From Patescibacteria group bacterium (GTDB lineage: Bacteria > Patescibacteriota > Patescibacteriia > UBA2591 > JAQWAS01): DNA of 64,000 nt. The stretch lies in NCBI GenBank assembly GCA_028707495.1, contig JAQWAS010000005.1, forward strand, positions 1,065 through 65,064. The letters are read 5' to 3'. Shown in pieces: positions 1 through 10,795 of the stretch. Positions within the stretch are counted from its first letter, which is position 1; each line of letters begins with the position of its first letter. The translations under genes and the position numbers were made by a program. The notes beneath the pieces were generated by a model. That model was not told the DNA's origin. It was given only the letters and a program-made list of their open reading frames with translations, and made no database searches.

Positions 1-981
1 GAAAAAGAACTCAAGCACTACAAGAAACAATTTCGAGGCAAGATTGTTTATTGTAATTGTGATGATCCATACGAGAGCAACTTTTTTAAATACTTCGCAT
101 CCAACTTTAATGCCCTTGGATTAAAAAAGATTATCGCCACGAGTTACAGTGGTTCACCGATTATTGGAGGCCAATTACCTCTATTTCAAATGGCTGGCTC
201 AAAGGGCAAACAACCGCTCAAAATTGAGATTAAAGAAGTGCCAGACATAGATAAAGATGGGGCAATAAACCTTGACGATGTTAAGTATTTGCTCAAACAT
301 GATAAAAACACCGCCACCCCATTAAAAAGTAGCGGCGATTTTCGAAGTGATGAGTGTATAAAACTACTAAAGCAAGCCGATATAGTCGTAACCAATCCGC
401 CGTTTTCTTTGTTCCGTGAATACTTGGCTCAACTGATGGAATACAATAAGAAATTTTTAATTCTCGGCGATCAAAATAACATAACTAAAAAAGACATTTT
501 TAAATTTATAAAGGAAAATAAAGTATGGCTTGGTTACGATAATGGTGGCACAAAGTGGTTCCAGGTGCCAGATGATTATGATATTGCAACCGAGTCAAGA
601 AAAAAAATTGTAAATGGAATCAAGTACTTCAGTATGGGGAGAATTTTGTGGTTTACTAATCTTGAAACTACCAAGCGGCACGAGAATATTGTGTTGTATA
701 AAAAATATGTACCTGAAGAATTTCCTAAGTATGACAACTACAATGCCATTAACATTGACAAGGTTTCCGACATTCCAAAGAATTATAATAGAGTAATGGG
801 TGTTCCGATAACATTTATTGATAAATATAATCCCGAACAGTTTGAACTATTGGGAATTATGAATACAGGCGAAAAAAATATAGGCATAAGATACAAAGGG
901 ACACCACACGGAAGACCGCTTGTGAACGGGGTTGAAAAGTATCTTCGTATTTTAATAAAAATAAAAAAACTAAAAAAATAA
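1..981 (+). CDS. EcoRI-family adenine DNA methyltransferase (5' truncated by window edge)
   Basis: Frame +1 is open from base 1 (EKELKHY...VYCNCDDP); motifs GDFRS and VTNPPFSLFREY. Confidence 0.9.
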   Translation, partial: EKELKHYKKQFRGKIVYCNCDDPYESNFFKYFASNFNALGLKKIIATSYSGSPIIGGQLPLFQMAGSKGKQPLKIEIKEVPDIDKDGAINLDDVKYLLKHDKNTATPLKSSGDFRSDECIKLLKQADIVVTNPPFSLFREYLAQLMEYNKKFLILGDQNNITKKDIFKFIKENKVWLGYDNGGTKWFQVPDDYDIATESRKKIVNGIKYFSMGRILWFTNLETTKRHENIVLYKKYVPEEFPKYDNYNAINIDKVSDIPKNYNRVMGVPITFIDKYNPEQFELLGIMNTGEKNIGIRYKGTPHGRPLVNGVEKYLRILIKIKKLKK

Positions 982-982
982 T

Positions 983-2089
983 ATGAAAATCGATCTACAT
1001 AAAATCACAATTCGTAAAGTTATAGCTGGCTATAAAGATAGCGCCGAAGAAGGCGTAACGGCGTACGATGACAAATTAAATATTCGTCCAAAATATCAAC
1101 GTGAGTTTGTATACAAGGAAAAACAACGCAATGCAGTAATAGAAACTATCAAAAATAGCTTTCCGCTAAATGTGATGTATTGGATGATTAGAGAAGATGG
1201 CGGTTACGAAGTATTGGACGGACAACAGCGCACAATCAGTATTGGGCAGTATGTTACTGGCGATTTTTCACTGAACGACCGCTTTTTTCATAATTTAACC
1301 AAAGAGGAGCAGGAGAAAATTTTAGATTATGAATTGATGATTTATTTTTGCGAAGGCACGGACAAAGAACGACTGGATTGGTTTAGGATTATCAATATTG
1401 CCGGTGAAAAACTGACTGATCAGGAGATCCGCAATGCGGTTTATACTGGCCCATGGCTCTCGGACGCCAAATTAAAATTCAGCAAATCAAATTGTGTGGC
1501 GTACTTATTGGCAAATGACGGTGGCTCGCTTGTTAGTGGCTCACCAATACGACAAGAATATTTAGAAACAGCACTTTCTTGGATAAATGATGGCAAAATC
1601 GAAGATTACATGGCTAAACACCAGCACGATAAAAGTGCCGATGAGCTATGGGATTATTTTCAAAATGTAATTGCGTGGGCACGAGAGGCTTTTACTAATT
1701 ATCGCCGAGAAATGAGCAATGTGCCTTGGGGCGTGCTATACAACCAATTCAATAGTAAAAAAATTGATTCAAAGAAACTGGAAAAGGAAATAGCAAAGTT
1801 GATGCAGGACGAAGATGTGACTAAAAAATCCGGCATTTATGAATATGTTTTAACTAGAAATGAAAAGTTTTTGAATATACGAGCTTTCACCGAAAAAATG
1901 AAGCGTGAAGCATATGAGAGACAAAAAGGAATTTGTCCGCATTGTAAAGGCAAGAATAAAAAAAAGAAATGGGAAATTGAAGAAATGGAAGCCGACCATA
2001 TAAAGCCTTGGCACGAAGGCGGAAAAACAACTGCAGTAAATTGCCAAATGTTATGCAAACAAGACAATAGAACTAAATCAGGAAAATAA
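983..2089 (+). CDS. DUF262 (GmrSD-like) + C-terminal HNH endonuclease
   Basis: PKYQREFVY and VLDGQQR DUF262 motifs; CPHC...EADHIKPWHEGG...NCQMLC..DN HNH motif. Confidence 0.85.
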   Translation: MKIDLHKITIRKVIAGYKDSAEEGVTAYDDKLNIRPKYQREFVYKEKQRNAVIETIKNSFPLNVMYWMIREDGGYEVLDGQQRTISIGQYVTGDFSLNDRFFHNLTKEEQEKILDYELMIYFCEGTDKERLDWFRIINIAGEKLTDQEIRNAVYTGPWLSDAKLKFSKSNCVAYLLANDGGSLVSGSPIRQEYLETALSWINDGKIEDYMAKHQHDKSADELWDYFQNVIAWAREAFTNYRREMSNVPWGVLYNQFNSKKIDSKKLEKEIAKLMQDEDVTKKSGIYEYVLTRNEKFLNIRAFTEKMKREAYERQKGICPHCKGKNKKKKWEIEEMEADHIKPWHEGGKTTAVNCQMLCKQDNRTKSGK

Positions 2090-2162
2090 AGACAATATAT
2101 TACACCGAATGGAAGAATAAGGTATTTTATCATCCTACTTAAAAAAATTATTATTAAAAACA

Positions 2163-4766
2163 ATGTCAATAATAGCAGACATAATAGATTGGTCTGGTGG
2201 TAAACCAATATTTCTCCAGGAGGCCATTGGACGAATTATCCAAAAAAACGTCTTATCAGATGATGATATTTTAGAATTAACATTAATTTGCAAATCGGAG
2301 CAAGGACTAACAAAATATCAAGGAAATTTAATAGATCTAAAAAAAGTAAAAGAATCTTTAAAAGAGTCCGATGTATCTAACGCTGTTTCTGTGATAAAAA
2401 TTTTTTCGACGGAAAATATAAATGCTTTACAAAACAATTCTGAAATAGATATTGAAGAAAAAGGATTAACGGTTATATATGGTGACAATGGATCGGGAAA
2501 ATCTAGTTATGTCAGTATATTGAAACAAGTTTGCAACACGAGAGGAAGTATTCCCACAATTAATAAAAACCTTTTTATTGGATCTGCCGCGCAACAAAAT
2601 CAAAAAGCCAAAATACAGTACAAAACAGGAGAAAATGTGGCTTCGGTTACTTGGGAAAACAACAATTCAGACAGTAACATATTGAAGGCAGTGCACATAT
2701 ACGACACAAAAAGTGCAAGTTCTTATATTGAAGATGAAGATGAAATCGCTTTTATCCCTTCGGGTTTATTAATCGTAGAACAACTCGCCAATGTATGTAA
2801 TAGGATTGAAGAAAATCTCAGAAAAGAAATAGGACAAATAGAATCAAGAAAACTTGATTATTCATTTTTAATTAATGAAGAAGGTAATGGAATTCAAACT
2901 TTTTTAAAAAACCTTAGTGCAAGAAGTGATCTAAAAACATTAGACAATATCTCAAATTTTACGACTGACGATGAAAAGTTGCTAAAAGCAACAGAACAAG
3001 AAATCGCAAAATTAAAAACACTAGATCCTGCTCAAAAAATATCTGAAAATAATAAAATTATATCTCGTTTTAACTCTCTAAAAGCAAGGTACGAGCAGAT
3101 ACTATCTAAATTATCTATTGAAAAAATTGAAGAAATAAAAAAAGACGTTCTAAAGAGCACTGAACTTCAAAGCGCAAGCAAAGCTCTCACCGAACAAACC
3201 TTTTCGGATTTACCACTGAAAAGTATTGGGTCTCAACCATGGAAAGTATTATGGGAAAGCGCAAAGAGATTTTATCAATATTCTGAATCAAAAAATTTTC
3301 CTGACCACGACGAAAGCTCAGTGTGCCCTCTTTGTTTACAAAATTTAAGTGATGAGGCAAAAGAAAGATTTAAAAATCTCGAGGCATTCGTACAGTCAGA
3401 TATACAAAATCAAATAAACGCCATTGGGATTAAATTGCGTCAGTCAAGTCAAGAAATTTCGAGTATTAATTTGAATTTTTCGGAAATTGAAACCACCCTT
3501 AATGAACTCGATGAAATATCTAGTAATTTTAAGCAACGGCACGCAAATCAAATAGATACAATTAATAAGTACGTAATTTCTGTAATGAACTTACTTGCAG
3601 GACGAGAAAGCCCTGGGTCATTTAATGCGCAAGAGCTATCTATAGATCTGATTGAAGTAATAAAGAAAATTGTAGAAAAAATTGAGGAAGAAAATAAGAC
3701 GCTGTTACAAAAATCATATCAAAAAGACCTTGAAGCACAAGCAAAGACTCTTTCATTGCTAAAATCTAAAAAAGATTTATCTGAAAATAAAGAAAAAATA
3801 AAAGACGAGATAAAAAGACAACGTTTTGTAGATGGTCTATTTTTATGTATACGAACTTGCAACACGAGACATATTTCAATTTTAAGCAACACATTATCAG
3901 AACAGTACATCACAGAAACGCTCAAAAATAACTTTACAGATGAACTAAAAAGACTTGGTTTTACTGGAGTAGAAATAGTTACATCAACTCGAAGTAGAAG
4001 CGGAAAACAATATCATTTTCTTGAATTAGATTCATCATATGGAAGTAACGCGAACTTGAAGGAAATACTAAGCGAGGGAGAACACAGATGTATTTCTTTG
4101 GCTACGTTTTTGTCGGAACTTTCCATTTCAGGACATAAATCTTCAATTATATTTGATGATCCGGTCTCTTCTCTAGATCATAAATGGCGAAAAAAAATTG
4201 CTAAAAGAATTGTAGAAGAATCACAGGAAAGACAGGTTATTGTTTTTACACATGACATTACTTTTTTAATGAACCTTCAAGAGTTTGATGACGAAATAAA
4301 AATCCAAAGCTTGACTAGAAAAAAATTTGAAACTGGCATATCCTCAAAAAATCCACCATGGGATGCATTATCTACAAAAAATAGAATCAAAATATTAAAG
4401 GAATACTTACAGCAATTAGAAGAGGCCAAAAATACTGAAACAGAAGAAATTTATAAAGAAAAATCTAAAGTATTTTATGGACAACTTCGTGAAGCATGGG
4501 AAAGATGTATTGAGGAGGTTGTTTTGAATGAATCTGTACAAAGATTTGGTCGTTCTATACAAACTAAACGACTAGAAAAAGTTGTTGATTTAACGGAGGA
4601 AGACTATAAAATTATTGAAGATAATATGGAAGAATGTTCAACTTATCTTACGGGCCATGATAGTGCAGGAGAATTAATTGAAGAGGCGCCCACAATTGAA
4701 GAAACAAAAAATGACTTAGCCGCTTTAGAAATTTTTACAAAAACCATACACAAGAGAAGACAATAA
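2163..4766 (+). CDS. Rad50/SMC-like ABC ATPase with zinc hook and possible C-terminal HEPN-like domain (RloC-like)
   Basis: Walker A GDNGSGKS, coiled coil with CPLC, signature LSEGE, Walker B IIFDDP, H-loop FTHD; C-terminal LREAWE...GHD. Confidence 0.7.
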   Translation: MSIIADIIDWSGGKPIFLQEAIGRIIQKNVLSDDDILELTLICKSEQGLTKYQGNLIDLKKVKESLKESDVSNAVSVIKIFSTENINALQNNSEIDIEEKGLTVIYGDNGSGKSSYVSILKQVCNTRGSIPTINKNLFIGSAAQQNQKAKIQYKTGENVASVTWENNNSDSNILKAVHIYDTKSASSYIEDEDEIAFIPSGLLIVEQLANVCNRIEENLRKEIGQIESRKLDYSFLINEEGNGIQTFLKNLSARSDLKTLDNISNFTTDDEKLLKATEQEIAKLKTLDPAQKISENNKIISRFNSLKARYEQILSKLSIEKIEEIKKDVLKSTELQSASKALTEQTFSDLPLKSIGSQPWKVLWESAKRFYQYSESKNFPDHDESSVCPLCLQNLSDEAKERFKNLEAFVQSDIQNQINAIGIKLRQSSQEISSINLNFSEIETTLNELDEISSNFKQRHANQIDTINKYVISVMNLLAGRESPGSFNAQELSIDLIEVIKKIVEKIEEENKTLLQKSYQKDLEAQAKTLSLLKSKKDLSENKEKIKDEIKRQRFVDGLFLCIRTCNTRHISILSNTLSEQYITETLKNNFTDELKRLGFTGVEIVTSTRSRSGKQYHFLELDSSYGSNANLKEILSEGEHRCISLATFLSELSISGHKSSIIFDDPVSSLDHKWRKKIAKRIVEESQERQVIVFTHDITFLMNLQEFDDEIKIQSLTRKKFETGISSKNPPWDALSTKNRIKILKEYLQQLEEAKNTETEEIYKEKSKVFYGQLREAWERCIEEVVLNESVQRFGRSIQTKRLEKVVDLTEEDYKIIEDNMEECSTYLTGHDSAGELIEEAPTIEETKNDLAALEIFTKTIHKRRQ

Positions 4767-4893
4767 GGAGTTTTGGGCTACGGGCATTCACCCCTTTAAT
4801 TCCCCTCTGCCCTTCGCCCAAAACGGAAAAAGAAATTTTAAAATTTTTTAAAACAATTCCGACTGCTGTCGGATAAAAGAAAAGGAATACATC

Positions 4894-4996
4894 AGCTAAC
4901 ACGGCATATCTGGTTACGGTTCGCCTCCGGCGAGCCTCCACCCATATTTTACTTCGCTTCGCTCTGTAAAACATCAGATATGCCGAAACGTTATAC
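4894..4996 (+). mobile_element. attC-like recombination site 1
   Basis: AGCTAAC-A-CGGCATATCTG ... CAGATATGCCG-AAAC-GTTATAC, intergenic. Confidence 0.8.
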
Positions 4997-5059
4997 GAAA
5001 TTCACTCCGCCCCACCTCAAAGACAAACTTTTATAAAATAGCTTAAATCTATCTAAAAT

Positions 5060-5731
5060 ATGGATCAAAAATTTCAAAAAATCAAAGAAGCTGTAGAAAA
5101 GGAACTTTCCTGTTCTGCTCACAATATGGATCATGTAATGAGAGTTTATAATCTTTCTTTGCATCTTGCTGAAAATAAAGATATTGATTTAGATGTTCTC
5201 AAAGCATCTGCTTTATTACATGATATCGCAAGAGTCAAAGAAGATAATGATCATACTGGAAAAACCGATCATGCAATCTTAAGCTCTGAAATGGCAGTGC
5301 CAATTTTAAAAGAACTTGATTTTTCAGAAGAACAAATTAAGCACATTCAAGATTGCATAATCTCACACAGATACAGAACAGGAAATGAAGCTAAAACCAA
5401 AGAAGCTCAAATTCTATTTGACGCAGATAAATTAGACACTCTTGGTGCAATCGGAATTGCAAGAAGTTTTGTCTGGGTTGGAAGAAATAACGCCAAAATT
5501 TATACAGATACCAATATTGAAAAATATATAGATGAAAATTTAGGCGGAAAAATAAACGGAAGAATCCAAGACAAAACTAAACATAGTCCGCAAATAGAAT
5601 TTGAAACGAAATTGAAATTTTTGATCACTAAGTTGCATACTGATAAAGCTAAAGAAGTATGCAAAGAAAGAATTGAATTTTATAAAAGTTTTTTAGATAG
5701 ATTAAAAAGCGAAATTAATGGTGAACTATAA
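5060..5731 (+). CDS. HD-domain phosphohydrolase (cassette A)
   Basis: AHNMDH, LLHDI, DHA, SHR and DADKLD motifs. Confidence 0.9.
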   Translation: MDQKFQKIKEAVEKELSCSAHNMDHVMRVYNLSLHLAENKDIDLDVLKASALLHDIARVKEDNDHTGKTDHAILSSEMAVPILKELDFSEEQIKHIQDCIISHRYRTGNEAKTKEAQILFDADKLDTLGAIGIARSFVWVGRNNAKIYTDTNIEKYIDENLGGKINGRIQDKTKHSPQIEFETKLKFLITKLHTDKAKEVCKERIEFYKSFLDRLKSEINGEL

Positions 5732-5797
5732 AACGGTGGGGCTCCGTGAACTCAAGGGGACGCTGCGCTTTCACTCCACTTCGTTTCGTTCACCCTC

Positions 5798-5897
5798 GTA
5801 TAACAAGGGATAAAAGGAAAATTGCTCGGCTCGCAATTTTCCCAAATTTTTCTTTCACTCCGTTCCAGAAAAACTTCTTTTATCCCCGATGTTATAC
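5798..5897 (+). mobile_element. attC-like site 2
   Basis: GTATAAC-AA-GGGATAAAAG ... CTTTTATCCC-CGAT-GTTATAC; GTATAAC complements upstream GTTATAC at 4990. Confidence 0.8.
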
Positions 5898-5966
5898 GAA
5901 ATAATTAAATTCTTTTGGCTATCGCCAAAAATTATTGGGGCAAATTTTTATTTTATTTTTTAGAAC

Positions 5967-7019
5967 ATGAACAAAAACCAAATCATAACATTATCAGGAT
6001 ATAGTATCATCCATGGGATTATAGACCTATGCTGTGCAGTGGTTGTTTTTAGTACATTACTATATCATGGTTATGATGCAAAAGATGTCTTTATTTTTGT
6101 CGTGGCTTACAATGTAATAGCTTTTGGACTACAAGCACCTTTTGGATTTTTAGTGGATAGATATCAAGTCCCCAAAGAAAGCGCTTTAATTGGTTGTATT
6201 TTAGTTTTATCTTCTTTTTTTATATTTAGTATACCTGCTTTGGTTATAATATTATCAGGATTAGGAAATGCTTTTTTTCATGTTGGCGGAGGAAGTATCA
6301 GTTTAAATTTTAATCCAACCAAAGCAACTGCACCGGGGATTTTTGTTGCGCCGGGCGCGCTAGGGCTAACAATCGGAATCATGGTTGGTAAAAGCGGATC
6401 ATTTATTTCTTGGCCTTTTGTTTTATTGCTTATTGCTTCATGTCTATTTATTATCTCTAGAAAAATCCCAGAAATTAACTATCAAAAAATATCGGCCAAA
6501 CCAAAAATTAAGTACTTTGAATTAATTATCATATTGCTTTTACTTTCTGTCGCAATAAGGGCTCTTTATGGCTTAGCCGCCGCTTGGAAAACTGACTTTA
6601 ACTTATTATTGATTTTGACCTTTGCAATAGTCGCTGGCAAGGCATTAGGTGGAATTTTTGCTGATAAGTTTGGATGGATAAAAACCGCAATTTTTGCGTT
6701 GGTAGTTTCAGCTCCCTTGCTTGCTTTTTTCCAAAGTTCACCAATACTAGCTATAACTGGTGCATTTTTATTTCAAATGACCATGCCAATAACATTAACT
6801 GCTCTATCGAACATGCTTCCAGGCAGATCAGCCACTGCTTTTGGTTTAACGGTTTTAGCTTTGATTATAGGCGTTATTCCTACTTACATTGGAGCCAAGC
6901 CATTTTTAAACAATCAATGGATAACTCTTGCAATTGTAGCCATATCTGCAAGTTCGCTACTAATTAGTTTCAAATTTTTGTATAATTATTTCAAAGGTCA
7001 ACTTAAAATTAATTTATAA
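5967..7019 (+). CDS. MFS-like multi-pass membrane protein (cassette B)
   Basis: Many hydrophobic segments; GFLVDRY and GIFADKFG resemble MFS motif A. Confidence 0.7.
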   Translation: MNKNQIITLSGYSIIHGIIDLCCAVVVFSTLLYHGYDAKDVFIFVVAYNVIAFGLQAPFGFLVDRYQVPKESALIGCILVLSSFFIFSIPALVIILSGLGNAFFHVGGGSISLNFNPTKATAPGIFVAPGALGLTIGIMVGKSGSFISWPFVLLLIASCLFIISRKIPEINYQKISAKPKIKYFELIIILLLLSVAIRALYGLAAAWKTDFNLLLILTFAIVAGKALGGIFADKFGWIKTAIFALVVSAPLLAFFQSSPILAITGAFLFQMTMPITLTALSNMLPGRSATAFGLTVLALIIGVIPTYIGAKPFLNNQWITLAIVAISASSLLISFKFLYNYFKGQLKINL

Positions 7020-7036
7020 TTTAATCAAAATAGCTT

Positions 7037-7291
7037 ATGAAAAAAATCAAAACAGTCTTAATAACCCTTTCCTTCTTCGCAGTTTCATCGCTAATGTTTG
7101 CACAAAATGCGCTAGCGGATTTACTGCCTCCTCCTGATGGCGGATGGGACACTCCAAGCAGACCAAACATCAATCCAGAACCAAAAACTTTTATTGATTT
7201 AATTGAACCACAACATATTGTTATTGGCGGAGCAGTTTTGGCTGTAGTAATAATATCTTTTGTAGTGCTCTTTAAAATGAGAAAAAAATGA
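7037..7291 (+). CDS. Small exported, membrane-anchored protein (cassette B)
   Basis: Signal peptide ending ALA-D, Pro-rich linker, C-terminal TM followed by KMRKK. Confidence 0.7.
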   Translation: MKKIKTVLITLSFFAVSSLMFAQNALADLLPPPDGGWDTPSRPNINPEPKTFIDLIEPQHIVIGGAVLAVVIISFVVLFKMRKK

Positions 7292-7635
7292 GATTAGAAT
7301 ACTATTTTCTAGCTCTAATTTTAACTCTAATAATTGAGCTATCCATAGCTTATGTTTTTGGATTTAGGAGTAAAAAAAACATTGTTACGATTATTTTTGC
7401 TAATTTCATAACACACCCCTTGCTTTGTTATTTTTTATGGATGAATTCAGTTATCTTTGTTATTCCAATTAATTACATTTCAATTATTGTTTTAGAGGTA
7501 TTGGTTGCATTATTAGAATCAGCTCTATTATTTTTAGCACTAAAACAAAAATACTTAGATATGTTAAAATTATCATTTGGTATAAACATAGTATCTTTTC
7601 TTGTTGGTTTATTAATATTCAAAAATAATTTTTAA
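7288..7635 (+). CDS. Small multi-TM membrane protein (cassette B)
   Basis: Hydrophobic ORF; ATGA overlap with the upstream gene. Confidence 0.7.
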   Translation: MRLEYYFLALILTLIIELSIAYVFGFRSKKNIVTIIFANFITHPLLCYFLWMNSVIFVIPINYISIIVLEVLVALLESALLFLALKQKYLDMLKLSFGINIVSFLVGLLIFKNNF

Positions 7636-7704
7636 ATAAGGAAAAATAAAATAAAAATTTGCCCCAATAATAACTCGCTATCGCTCGTTGAATTTAATTA
7701 CATC

Positions 7705-7791
7705 ATATAACAGCGTGTATGAGGCTACGGCTTTTTACAAAAGCCTTCGCCCAAATTGCTTCGCAACTTCTCATACGCGCGAACGTTATAC
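7705..7791 (+). mobile_element. attC-like site 3
   Basis: ATATAAC-A-GCGTGTATGAG ... CTCATACGCGC-GAAC-GTTATAC. Confidence 0.8.
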
Positions 7792-7846
7792 GTCGTAATA
7801 AAAATCCTCCTTATATTTTTTAATAATTTTGGTAACTTATAAAATT

Positions 7847-8086
7847 ATGAAAACACTAGAACAAAGAGAACCGCAATCAACACCAAATCAAGAATTAGAC
7901 AATCTTAAAAAAGAATTGGAAGAAAAAGGATATGTCGTGACAGAAACATCCCAACGTGGACAAAAGACTGATGTTACTATAAAAAATGATCTTGGTCAGG
8001 AAGGTAGTGGTGAAGGATATACATACGAAACAGCGCTTAAAAAAGCAATAACAGCTTTAGATTACATTATAAAAAATAAACTATAA
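7847..8086 (+). CDS. Small protein, possible dsRBD-like fold (cassette C)
   Basis: ATG at 7847; pattern P..EL...Y.V...V.I....GSGEG.T...A...A..AL. Confidence 0.55.
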   Translation: MKTLEQREPQSTPNQELDNLKKELEEKGYVVTETSQRGQKTDVTIKNDLGQEGSGEGYTYETALKKAITALDYIIKNKL

Positions 8087-8113
8087 AAAAAGGAATCGAC
8101 TTTTTATTACGAC

Positions 8114-8186
8114 GTATAACACCGCATATCCAACATACTTTTTCACTCCATTCAAAAGTACGTCGGATCATGCAGAAACGTTGTGC
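8114..8186 (+). mobile_element. attC-like site 4
   Basis: GTATAAC-ACC-GCATATCC ... GGATCATGC-AGAAAC-GTTGTGC. Confidence 0.8.
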
Positions 8187-8310
8187 GACATACATTTTTT
8201 ATCTCTTCTACAATTGAAAGTCAGAATTGAAATCAGGAAACAAAACAAGATTTTTGATTTTTAAGGAGGGGAATAAGGAACTTTTTTATCTAAATTAATG
8301 AAAAAAATTA

Positions 8311-8964
8311 ATGAAAAAAAATTTAGGAGTTATAAAAAACGGTTTATTCACAGGGTTTGTAATTCAATTGGCAATTGGACCAATCTTCTTTTTTGTGATT
8401 AATCTTACTCTTCAGAAAACCATTCTTGATGGGCTAATGGGAGTTTTTGCGGCGACAATTGTTGGATACATTTACATTGCTCTTTCTGCTTTTGGTATCG
8501 GAAAATTGCTCGAAAATAAAAAAACAAGTAAAATATTTGCAGCAATTAGTTCAATTGTTCTAATAATTTTTGGAGGAATAATTATAAAAGGAGCTTTAAG
8601 TAGCGGAGTTTCTGATAGTGTGATCAATACATCAAGTCTTTTTTCTAGCTTTACATCCGTTTTTTTACTTGCGATTTCTAATCCATTGAGCATTGTCTTT
8701 TTTACAAGTCTGTTTTCAACAAAAGCAATTGAATATAATTATACGAAAAAAGAACTGTATTTTTTTGGTCTAGGGACTGGATTATCAACTTTGATATTTA
8801 TGGGTGGTGCTGTTTTGATTTTTTCTTTACTCAAAGGCACAATACCAACAATTGTTATGCAAATACTGAACATAATTGTAGGAATTCTAATAATCGGATA
8901 TGGTACAATGAGATTGGTAAAACTTTTGAAAGAAAATAGGTTGGCTCGCAAAATTCACCCCTAA
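8311..8964 (+). CDS. LysE/RhtB-family transporter (cassette D)
   Basis: GF...LAIGP N-terminal motif, LAISNP motif, about 6 TM segments. Confidence 0.85.
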   Translation: MKKNLGVIKNGLFTGFVIQLAIGPIFFFVINLTLQKTILDGLMGVFAATIVGYIYIALSAFGIGKLLENKKTSKIFAAISSIVLIIFGGIIIKGALSSGVSDSVINTSSLFSSFTSVFLLAISNPLSIVFFTSLFSTKAIEYNYTKKELYFFGLGTGLSTLIFMGGAVLIFSLLKGTIPTIVMQILNIIVGILIIGYGTMRLVKLLKENRLARKIHP

Positions 8965-9071
8965 CCCCTCTTTTGCTCGCCAAATGGAAAAAATCTTGTT
9001 TTGTTTGGCTTGAAAAATAAGGTCTAGATTGTAATTCACGAGATAAAAAATGTACTAAACCCTACGGGGTC

Positions 9072-9140
9072 GCACAACTGCCACTATCCGACATCCTCCG
9101 CTATCGCTACGGACGATCGGATCAGTGGCATACGTTATTA
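9072..9140 (+). mobile_element. attC-like site 5 (last of the array)
   Basis: GCACAAC-TGCCACTATCCGA ... TCGGATCAGTGGCA-TAC-GTTATTA; GCACAAC complements GTTGTGC at 8180. Confidence 0.8.
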
Positions 9141-9145
9141 AATTT

Positions 9146-10795
9146 TTATCTATCAATATAATTCTTAAAATCCGCACTATTTTTCCATTGCTGGTAGGAA
9201 AGACTTGGATGCACTGTTTTACCACCAAAACGCACAGCCTGTTCAATGGCTTTAATTGGATAACCACGATTCTGGTAGGCATCAGTTAACGTCTGAAAAT
9301 TAGCATTATTCAAATTCACGCTCCCAAATTTGCGTTGTAAAATATCTCTTAATTCAGCTTCTGATGAACGGTTCATCACAGTTTGATAATCTAAACTATG
9401 TTGCCAAGTTTGCCAGCTAATGGCTGGATGTACAGTCTTACCACCAAAACGCAGAGCTTTAACTATCGCTTCGATAGGATAACCACCATACATATAAGCA
9501 CGTAGCAAAACTTGATAATTATTGTCTGTTAAATTATATTCACCTATATTTTGATTTAATAAATATTCCAATTCATCTTTTTTATTATCAATCGTAGCCT
9601 GAGCGTAGGTTGGTTTAAAATAATTTTGCGCTTGAAGTTTGTCTGGACCTTTGGGACTATAGCCATATTTAATTTCATGACCGTCTGGATAGCCATCTCT
9701 ATCTGTATCTGCGTTGTTGGGATCGGTACCAATTTCAATTTCATAACTATCAATTAAACCATCGCCATCTGTATCAACTAATTGACTAGTTGGCTGAGCC
9801 GTGACTGGATTAACTGGTGTCGGCTTGGTGGTAAATGACATTTCGTCGGTAGTTAATTTACGACCGTATAAAGCATCATAAATGTTGATTTTATAATAAT
9901 ATTTAGTGTCCGGCTCTAAATCAATCAAAGTAATAGCATGTTCTAATTCTTGACTATCCTTGACCACATCCAAAGTCTGACCATTCTTACCCGGCTGTGT
10001 CCCATAAGAAATTTTACTTTTACTAATTAAATTGGTTCGCCAATCCAACGTGGCTTTAGTGTTAGTAATTTTAGTCCCATCGGGATCTAGGGGTGTTAAA
10101 TCTTTAATTTGTAAAATAGAATAGTCCACTGTACTAATTTGTGTTCGACAGCGTAAAACATGAAAACTTTTATTGCCCGCTTCATCAAGCGCTTCAATTT
10201 TAACTCGATAGGCCTGATTGCGTCCAAGTTTATAAATAAATAAAACGTGCTCTTGATGGTATTTATTATAACCAGTTTTTTTATAGTTGATTTCAGTCGC
10301 TAAACTATCAACATTATCAATGCCATAATAAATTGTAGCTTTGGTTGGTTCATTGGTTTTCCAATATAAAGCGATGGCATCGTTGGTTGTTTGTAAAACT
10401 TCGGCTTTTTCAATTTTAGGATCAATCGTGTCAATCATATCTTTAGTTGAAAAAGCTTGAATAAAAGATTCGGTTTGTTCTTGCAAACGATTGAAAGCTA
10501 AAATTTTAAAATAATAAGTCTGATTTTTTTCTAAACCAGTCATCACTGATTCGTGTCGTATTTCATACAAACTATAGCCAACCCATTTATCTAAGTGCTC
10601 ACGATTTAAACCATAATAAACAATCCCACGCGTCGGATTGCTTAAAGTTGACCACTTGATTCTAGCCGTGCCGTCTTTTAAATCATAAATTTCAATCTGG
10701 CTAATATCAACCTCTTGCGCTTGAACAATTCTGAGTGGCGCAATTAAACTTAAAACTATAATTAAAATTAAACTTATTTTGAATCTATTTCGCAT
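9146..10795 (-). CDS. Secreted protein with three Fn3-like repeats, Ca-binding DTDGDG repeats and a duplicated C-terminal domain
   Basis: Signal peptide; W.T....YG...L.P.T.YY repeats; DTDGDGLIDSYE; RFGGKTVHP twice. Confidence 0.8.
   Translation of the reverse strand: MRNRFKISLILIIVLSLIAPLRIVQAQEVDISQIEIYDLKDGTARIKWSTLSNPTRGIVYYGLNREHLDKWVGYSLYEIRHESVMTGLEKNQTYYFKILAFNRLQEQTESFIQAFSTKDMIDTIDPKIEKAEVLQTTNDAIALYWKTNEPTKATIYYGIDNVDSLATEINYKKTGYNKYHQEHVLFIYKLGRNQAYRVKIEALDEAGNKSFHVLRCRTQISTVDYSILQIKDLTPLDPDGTKITNTKATLDWRTNLISKSKISYGTQPGKNGQTLDVVKDSQELEHAITLIDLEPDTKYYYKINIYDALYGRKLTTDEMSFTTKPTPVNPVTAQPTSQLVDTDGDGLIDSYEIEIGTDPNNADTDRDGYPDGHEIKYGYSPKGPDKLQAQNYFKPTYAQATIDNKKDELEYLLNQNIGEYNLTDNNYQVLLRAYMYGGYPIEAIVKALRFGGKTVHPAISWQTWQHSLDYQTVMNRSSEAELRDILQRKFGSVNLNNANFQTLTDAYQNRGYPIKAIEQAVRFGGKTVHPSLSYQQWKNSADFKNYIDR

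Follow-up and report, generated by a model that had tools for sequence, protein, structure and literature searches.

What purpose long, matching arms at the two ends of a gene cassette might serve is the question raised by a cassette array in the genome of a Patescibacteria group bacterium (contig JAQWAS010000005.1 of assembly GCA_028707495.1), of which we analyzed a stretch of 64,000 nucleotides (nt), hereafter the window. The array is marked by five co-oriented AAC...GTT hairpin sites (sites 0 and A to D), whose RYYYAAC...GTTRRRY cores fold as a bottom-strand hairpin at all five positions, the bottom strand being the more stable in 5/5. These sites delimit the 3' part of a cassette Z and the complete cassettes A to D (Table 1). 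The original prediction held that each cassette is bracketed, outside its attC recombination site, by long inverted repeats specific to it. We find that such arms are real and widespread among cassettes of this type in the candidate phyla radiation (CPR), and our data suggest that the cassettes move as folded single-stranded DNA. We lean towards the view that the whole cassette adopts a selected single-stranded DNA fold whose outermost part is formed by the arms, and that this fold is used with a recombinase that lacks the hairpin-reading insertion of the integron integrase IntI.

All seven predicted arm pairs proved exact, with 30/30 and 11/11 matches in B, 20/20 in C, 10/10, 15/15 and 18/18 in D, and 9/9 in A. 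When the 100 nt outside the 7-bp core were dinucleotide-shuffled 300 times, the arms of B, C and D were reached by 0/300 on all three measures and those of A by 14, 25 and 4 of 300; the core itself is paired at 6/7 positions in B. The prediction had assumed that classical cassettes need about 7 bp of end complementarity. The published figure is instead 9-11 consecutive complementary nt, as stated in PMC2727003, and the 9/9 of A and the first 10/10 block of D are therefore ordinary. A stricter test counted pairing only from position 12 outward, beyond this published 11-nt limit, against 200 shuffles. Here, B and D were reached by 0/200 and A by 5/200, while cassette C by itself was not significant (24/200). 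Cassette A has arms beyond its 9/9 ends that had gone unnoticed, the longer being a 15-bp match (1/1000 shuffles) between its 5' untranslated region and its coding sequence. The D blocks, described as colinear, in fact lie on three diagonals (coordinate sums 17258, 17245 and 17244) because a side hairpin breaks into the 3' arm. Cassette C (7782-8182) and the D 3' arm are found without differences in contigs of other studies; thus the arms are not an assembly artefact.

In computed folds, the two B arms together form a four-way junction. As anticipated, the arms lengthen the attC stem in in-silico circles (on the bottom strand the R pair has a probability of 0.97-1.0, and 29-48 outer base pairs are expected), and they form in the linear strand as well. 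The further idea that the linear stem would compete with attC folding holds in part only: the inner L stems stay folded (probability 0.62-0.99) and the R'/R'' pairing alone changes partner, with a probability on the linear bottom strand of 0.98-0.99 in C and D, 0.12 in B and about 0 in A. Outer arms and both inner stems thus coexist on the computed linear bottom strand while R pairing switches, an arrangement that in the model is a four-way junction.

To place these arms in a wider frame, we took as a cassette the DNA between consecutive sites, so that end pairing played no part in the definition, and scored 90 of 101 CPR cassettes after removal of 11 under 250 bp. An arm was called when at most 2/200 shuffles reached the pairing beyond position 11. 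By this measure 54/90 CPR cassettes beat the shuffles, and among those with a perfect core 43/55 did so, as against 1/25 canonical cassettes with a perfect core and 1/49 overall, where the end runs are 7-12 nt long. CPR cassettes with a poor core, which are probably missed sites or chimeras, passed in 3/23 cases. A further exact match of at least 13 nt occurs in 44/55 core-matched CPR cassettes and in 0/25 canonical ones. The canonical control comprised class 1 and diverse chromosomal cassettes; a Vibrio-type control sought through viral contigs, the Vibrio superintegron not being part of the set, yielded one locus and zero cassette pairs.

The arms share a grammar, consisting of a 9-bp R stem, a conserved 2-nt break, a covarying outer stem of ~15 bp, side hairpins and a bottom-strand bias. 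The R run ends at exactly 9 in 47/55 CPR cassettes and pairing at positions 10-11 drops to 5% and 4%, lower than chance, before returning to 0.62-0.76 through position 25 (0.24-0.70 with the ends of other cassettes). Positions 13-24 covary with 3-4 pair types (own 0.70-0.94 versus permuted 0.30-0.65; at most 3/2000 permutations) in a set of one cassette per arm family, 33 of 59, picked for being in register. Side hairpins and additional stems like those of B and D recur in many CPR cassettes. Several features distinguish the strands. Isolated mismatches are G.T on the bottom strand in 14 cases and on the top strand in 2 (others 28), GNA/GNNA minihairpins number 38 on the bottom and 7 on the top strand, and duplex stability among the 59 is higher for the bottom strand in 41 and for the top strand in 14. 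Loops of the GNA/GNNA type are stable in DNA.

The arms also appear to be maintained. Compared with a homologous cassette in another family, the B arms are identical at 61/63 and 57/63 positions and third codon positions at 211/351 (60%), which as judged from sequence comparison indicates purifying selection on the arms. Arm strength increased with cassette length when counted per cassette (rho 0.41), and multi-kilobase cassettes retain long end arms around unfolded interiors. Homologs of the HD-domain gene of cassette A lay near a detected site in 0/6 cases; flank pairing in five of them was at chance in four and reached 4/200 in one.

The pairing does not stop at the arms. The HD gene of cassette A contains 21 inverted 10-mer pairs, compared with 1.3 in synonymous shuffles (0/500), and five non-cassette homologs contain 0, 0, 3, 0 and 0. 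The circle of A folds at -124 kcal/mol, and 25 synonymous shuffles gave -86 +/- 5 kcal/mol. The residues encoded by the helices fit the protein family, 70/75 being seen in a homolog versus 128/148 elsewhere. An asymmetry expected of template switching was sought in the helix arms of A and not seen, neither arm departing from the family. For a larger set, we counted exact inverted repeats of at least 11 bp after trimming 30 nt off each gene end. Coding sequences in CPR cassettes carry nested perfect helices of 11-21 bp: 103 genes contain 108 repeats versus 39.8 expected, with 21 genes significant, whereas 48 canonical cassette genes contain 3 versus 2.9 and 150 chromosomal genes 95 versus 84.3. 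At shorter lengths the canonical genes gave 40 versus 31.3 (9 bp) and 5 versus 8.7 (10 bp). Direct, mirror and complement repeats in the cassette genes served as controls and gave ratios of 1.08, 0.96 and 1.33. The result was replicated in 111 other genes located just upstream of a site (145 versus 28.6; 38 significant; controls 1.3-1.6-fold), while genes of the same loci more than 4 kb from any site gave 39 versus 26.4.

These helices are ordered. Crossing repeat pairs make up 10/117 versus 43% and 18/179 versus 35% in the two sets, so nesting is favoured; a centred rod shape was not supported (40/108 centred versus 31% by chance). The excess rises with helix length (29 versus 1.0 expected at 16 bp or more) and depends on cassette size, with 39 versus 4.2 below 1 kb, 37 versus 9.8 at 1-2 kb and 32 versus 25.7 above 2 kb. 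Arm strength and internal excess correlate negatively overall (rho -0.34), not significantly below 2 kb. In a subsample, folding energy pointed the same way, its mean excess being -6.1 in 16/30 cassette genes and -1.8 in 12/35 chromosomal and 12/28 canonical genes. Interrupted helices show G.T on the bottom strand 11 times versus 3.0 and on the top strand 7 times versus 4.5. Synonymous sites within helices are conserved at 90/115 (78%) versus 61% in homologs near an att site and at 126/191 (66%) versus 56% in homologs not near a detected site; part of this conservation is therefore bias or mislabelling, since homologs away from sites show it too. Fully compensatory pairs are rare (5/244 pair positions). 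A LysE homolog in locus L388 (G711:C15) contains 6 inverted 10-mers versus 0.35 expected, no attC having been detected nearby; judging by these repeats, it is possibly a former cassette gene.

The recombination sites differ from attC as well. A site of the window type reads AAC, 1 unpaired base, an 11-bp stem, mostly 3-5 unpaired bases and GTT. The canonical geometry, with 5-nt spacers and an extrahelical base in L'', is absent. A strict scan of 1.36 Mb of CPR-type loci, which are enriched for window-type sites by design because they were located with the site-0 motif, found 241 window-type sites and 0 canonical ones; in 1.08 Mb around IntI genes it found 38 canonical and 3 window-type sites, and in shuffled sequence none. 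A canonical-style attC scan did not recover the window sites, and its output was noise. One bottom-strand consensus (TA, three variable bases, GA, A or T, G, T) is common to the inner and outer arms of 201 sites, and each site is a dyad of two boxes of about 12 nt around a bulged 6-nt spacer. Hybrid sites also occur: one on the minus strand of contig C17 (offset ~4950-5070 of 58000-67905) joins a left half of the site-0 type to a right half of the site-A type, and the B homolog in locus L385 has a comparable one.

Three tyrosine recombinases are encoded in the genome, namely Xer (L002), a canonical IntI on contig C19 and a native 283-aa integrase. The latter lacks the ~31-residue IntI insertion (I2 helix), scores 234 bits against TIGR02249 (cut-off 265), and has IntI4 as its best solved-structure relative; the catalytic residues R140, K165, H230, R233, H256 and Y265 are invariant in the short integrase. 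In a quick tree of 67 proteins, from which archaeal XerA was left out, 35 short integrases group with 19 IntIs against 13 Xer proteins with a support of 99 in the SH-like approximate likelihood ratio test (SH-aLRT), the monophyly of the short integrases being supported by only 72. Directly upstream of the native integrase on contig C2 lies an inverted 11-6-11 attI-like site, and three further copies are present in the genome. Among 20 new loci selected by the short integrase alone, 17 bear downstream, divergently oriented window-type sites; neither a site on the opposite strand nor a canonical one was seen. The arrays come after attI sites that adjoin the short integrase, and the separate Xer is also present. 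As for the window array, its sites would link it to attI and the short integrase indirectly. One short integrase with four attI-like sites (on C2, C4, C13 and C17) would thus imply several arrays per genome, and further arrays lie on C4, C8, C14 and C17. By eye, the attI spacer of relatives is 6 or 7 bp according to integrase clade. We rejected the canonical IntI as the partner of the array because of its foreign composition and because canonical IntI loci hold the other attC type. Its gene (G000:C19; L003:1159-2145) lies on a 3.8-kb contig with 41% G+C, it groups with proteobacterial and Nitrospinota IntIs, and by composition and affinity the contig is probably binning contamination.

The arms described as cassette-specific turned out to be so in part. 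A cassette's own other end is strictly its best partner in 31/55 cases, and yet the largest arm family comprises 11 cassettes with 9 unrelated cargo groups. Arms are thus reusable frames and not strictly private, and the Z 3' arm belongs to a widely shared family. An identical copy of cassette C lies on C8 beside different neighbours and the B homolog sits in another family's array flanked by different cassettes, which points indirectly to cassettes moving as units. A second LysE cassette (G000:C8:32073-35723, L389) is chimeric: its 5' arm is that of D, its 3' arm comes from the large-cassette family, and the junction falls at a short motif common to both 3' arms. The large-arm family often bears multi-kilobase cargo, that of Z being restriction-modification-like.

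Loops of attC extend past 1 kb and can contain genes. Among 26 sites with loops longer than 250 nt, 24 contain an open reading frame (ORF) of at least 70 aa (18 sense, 6 antisense); cargo can therefore occupy either loop of a dumbbell. A tiny pure-hairpin cassette precedes 8/26 long-loop sites and 1/237 short ones. In the last 7 kb of the C8 minus strand, ORF-less hairpin cassettes of 40-111 bp precede attC sites of 486-802 nt whose loops contain genes, one of them antisense. Genes inside attC loops (n = 24) hold 8 repeats versus 1.4 expected, which counts for our model because in a linear array the stem must close across the gene.

Based on these data, we propose how such cassettes may move. 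The bottom strand would become single in a lagging-strand gap or in DNA taken up by competence. Helices would then zip the two ends of one cassette together, its own R' and R'' would pair, and the inner stems of the neighbouring sites would remain folded, giving the four-way junction. The short integrase would resolve this junction, or own-end pairing would pull the exchanged junction apart, so that one pair of strand exchanges would yield an excised, dumbbell-shaped circle. Through the same arms, the circle would present its site as a long duplex, a stand-in for double-stranded DNA when inserting at attI; the CTX phage offers a duplex-mimicking stem to XerCD, which lacks I2, in a comparable way (PMC4792948). 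For Vibrio, excision in a single exchange from a linear single strand is reported (PMC12614218). Where sites fold poorly, excision becomes less frequent as cassettes get longer (PMC5371416), a drop that the zipper would offset. Every step after folding is inferred, and recombination at G|TT, the circle and the single strand are predictions. A fuller version, which we put forward tentatively and hold somewhat less probable than not, is that of a distinct CPR integron-like system whose cassettes travel as dumbbell-shaped single-stranded DNA with cargo in either terminal loop and with reusable hairpin frames that accept unrelated genes. Captured genes would be synonymously rewritten to a nested fold that pre-assembles the Holliday junction for an integrase devoid of the hairpin-reading domain, and the system would possibly resemble a step from Xer to IntI.

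Several observations weigh against a selected whole-cassette fold. Own-end R pairing in the local context is predicted for C and D, and is weak in B and about nil in A. The genes of B, C and D have no internal helix excess, the excess being limited to 21/103 and 38/111 genes in the two sets, and two of the A helices exclude others. Coding helices carry little strand information because they are mostly perfect. In a small replicate, arms passed in 3/7 core-matched cassettes and 8/19 overall, and counted per arm family the relation between arm strength and length was not significant (rho 0.20, p 0.13). The chimeric LysE cassette with its unmatched arms persists on C8. The window array starts at a contig end and is not on the integrase contig, and contigs of other studies list no circle junction; skipping joints in the contigs are compatible with shared att sequence and were not counted as evidence. 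The folds of 1-2 kb are equilibrium folds that ignore single-stranded DNA-binding protein and kinetics.

Other explanations have to be weighed against this evidence. The fold could be selected for the survival or transport of single-stranded circles, with recombination itself requiring no more than the 12-nt boxes, perhaps along with the first 15-bp clamp. Deep gene helices are indeed unneeded for site assembly in a circle whose ends are already adjacent, their excess is greatest below 1 kb, less at 1-2 kb and near nil beyond, and pure hairpin mini-cassettes exist. We nevertheless regard this explanation as unlikely, if the most serious of the four, as stems start exactly at the end of the recombinase box, the 2-nt break and the branch points are fixed, and multi-kilobase cassettes hold long end arms despite unfolded interiors. 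A by-product of making or copying cassettes, through template switching, mismatch repair of a folded strand or reverse transcription and functionless afterwards, would fit coding helices that are mostly perfect, end abruptly and grow in excess with length, the rarity of fully compensatory pairs, the reverse transcriptase in the genome and the swapping of cargo within shared frames. Such a footprint had been among the roles first considered. It is disfavoured by arms far better conserved than synonymous sites, by the conservation of synonymous helix sites near att (itself partly bias), by helices that avoid crossing and by the agreement of the A helix arms with their protein family; asymmetric side hairpins and a conserved mismatch are not copies. 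We thus consider it improbable.

The stems might instead act in RNA, as a long closing helix cut by RNase III or as a control of translation or stability, and RNA processing had also been considered from the outset. RNase III is encoded, arm ends lie close to start and stop codons, and Watson-Crick helices form equally on the top strand. The strand bias argues against such a role: it is the bottom, antisense DNA strand that is favoured by wobble pairs, by position 11 and by loop motifs, and top-strand interruptions of the G.U type are few. Moreover, the same design is seen in hairpin cassettes without an ORF and in genes lying antisense within attC loops, and cutting coding helices would destroy messages, leaving this explanation with little probability. 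Chance in A+T-rich DNA, an ordinary 9-11-nt R-box extension or an assembly artefact would account for the end matches of A and the 10/10 of D and for C alone beyond position 11, and the top 1% of chromosomal gene flanks attain exact matches of 14-19 nt. For B, D and the whole set this is refuted by the negative shuffle, cross-cassette, mirror, complement and direct-repeat controls, by canonical cassettes and non-cassette homologs of A without the feature, and by contigs of other studies that share the arms; as a general account it is hardly credible.

Among known systems, classical integrons share with our array the co-oriented cassettes with AAC...GTT hairpin sites, an integrase divergent from attI and the array, the more stable bottom strand, cassettes that recur beside other neighbours, and an integrase that groups with IntI against XerC/D (SH-aLRT 99). 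They differ in end pairing that stops at 7-12 nt, compared with tens of bases here, and in the extra C in L'', which is replaced here by 1 versus 3-5 unpaired bases and an 11-bp inner stem; gene-holding attC loops of more than 1 kb and self-complementary coding DNA likewise set the CPR cassettes apart. The CPR system works like an integron and departs from one in three defining features: the IntI insertion, attC geometry and end pairing of 9-11 nt. The dif sites have inverted 11-bp arms around 6-7 bp, a layout shared by the attI sites found here. In the CTX phage attP/XerCD system, one of the integrative mobile elements exploiting Xer (IMEX), a single-strand fold mimics a duplex for a tyrosine recombinase without I2, as described in PMC4792948. 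The CPR cassettes differ in a dedicated integrase apart from the host Xer, serial cargo arrays and a conserved 3-nt spacer bulge, and no phage genes were seen. Viroids, the hepatitis delta virus and obelisks have rod-like RNA genomes, small circles whose coding or cargo sequence is constrained to nested self-pairing. The CPR cassettes, in contrast, are DNA with short, separated, perfect helices, are branched rather than rod-centred and integrated in arrays, and no replication function was seen in them. Finally, clusters of attC sites lacking integron integrases (CALINs) and archaeal integrons likewise come from fragmented genomes of uncultured lineages in which attC clusters have no integrase beside them; the IntIs of those systems retain the IntI-specific domain, attC folding there resembles that of bacteria, and long end arms are not described in the consulted part of that report (10.1101/2022.02.06.479319).

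In the literature, covered as titles and abstract openings with subscription reviews outside the scope, we found no long cassette-end arms, no such site geometry and no self-folding cassette genes; the self-folding of coding sequences in cassettes is a new result. If our reading is right, a DNA fold replaces the role of the IntI insertion in a second solution to cassette shuffling, and these genes are a case, in a cellular genome, of protein-coding DNA selected for long-range single-strand structure. The helix excess would then be a measurable mark of the time a gene has spent as a cassette. Cassette genesis, for which no reliable model exists according to PMC4792948 and PMC5371416, could be approached through the shared frames whose cargo has been swapped, the empty hairpin cassettes and the attC-loop genes. 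Judging from 0 canonical versus 241 window-type sites, detectors that require the canonical attC geometry would overlook such arrays.

Table 1 Features of the cassette array in the window.
Feature	Coordinates	Strand	Description
Upstream cassette Z, 3' part	1..4900	+	5840 bp in total; begins outside the window at C14:125
Cassette Z cargo	1-4766	+	EcoRI-type methylase; GmrSD/HNH nuclease 983-2089; AAA ATPase 2163-4766
Cassette Z 3' arm	4768..4893	+	Partner is the Z 5' arm 5.8 kb away; score 35, 0/200 shuffles
attC-like site 0	4894..4996	+	R'' 4894-4900, inner stem from 4902, R' 4990-4996; unpaired: 1 left, 4 right
Cassette A	4990..5804	+	9-bp R stem 4990-4998/5796-5804; side hairpin 5752-5795
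A 5' untranslated arms	5025-5039, 5046-5058	+	Complement coding 5677-5691, 5691-5703; mutually exclusive
A HD-domain gene	5060..5731	+	Seven internal helices, 10-15 bp
A HD-gene helices, first four	5063-5077/5612-5626, 5106-5117/5374-5385, 5130-5139/5215-5224, 5152-5164/5659-5671	+	
A HD-gene helices, last three	5271-5280/5349-5358, 5407-5420/5591-5604, 5465-5474/5569-5578	+	
attC-like site A	5798..5897	+	
Cassette B	5891..7711	+	ORFs 5967-7019, 7037-7291, 7288-7635
B 5' arm	5902..5960	+	Stem 5902-5912, side hairpin 5913-5930, stem 5931-5960
B 3' arm	7642..7700	+	Stem 7642-7671, side hairpin 7672-7689, stem 7690-7700
attC-like site B	7705..7791	+	
Cassette C	7785..8120	+	Perfect 20-bp end stem 7785-7804/8101-8120; 79-aa ORF 7847-8086
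attC-like site C	8114..8186	+	
Cassette D	8180..9078	+	Stems 8180-8189/9069-9078, 8191-8205/9040-9054, 8238-8255/8989-9006; LysE gene 8311-8964
Cassette D side hairpin	9055-9068	+	
attC-like site D	9072..9140	+	Final site of the array

Within the array, promoter-like sites occur at chance level (18 versus 18.6), an Rfam search gave three sub-threshold matches only, and the membrane protein encoded by the first ORF of cassette B had no match in Pfam or NCBIfam. Just beyond the array lies a Fibronectin-III/TSP3 surface protein gene on the minus strand (9146-10795) with an internal repeat near 9206-9400. The genome comprises 857 kb in 19 contigs with about 33% G+C; contigs C3, C5 and C16 are G+C-rich, like C19. 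It also encodes ComEC. The reverse transcriptase is located at G000:C4:36261-36869 in a 335-aa frame, and on the same contig, at G000:C4:16934-17077, a 7-base repeat in inverted runs forms a long hairpin.

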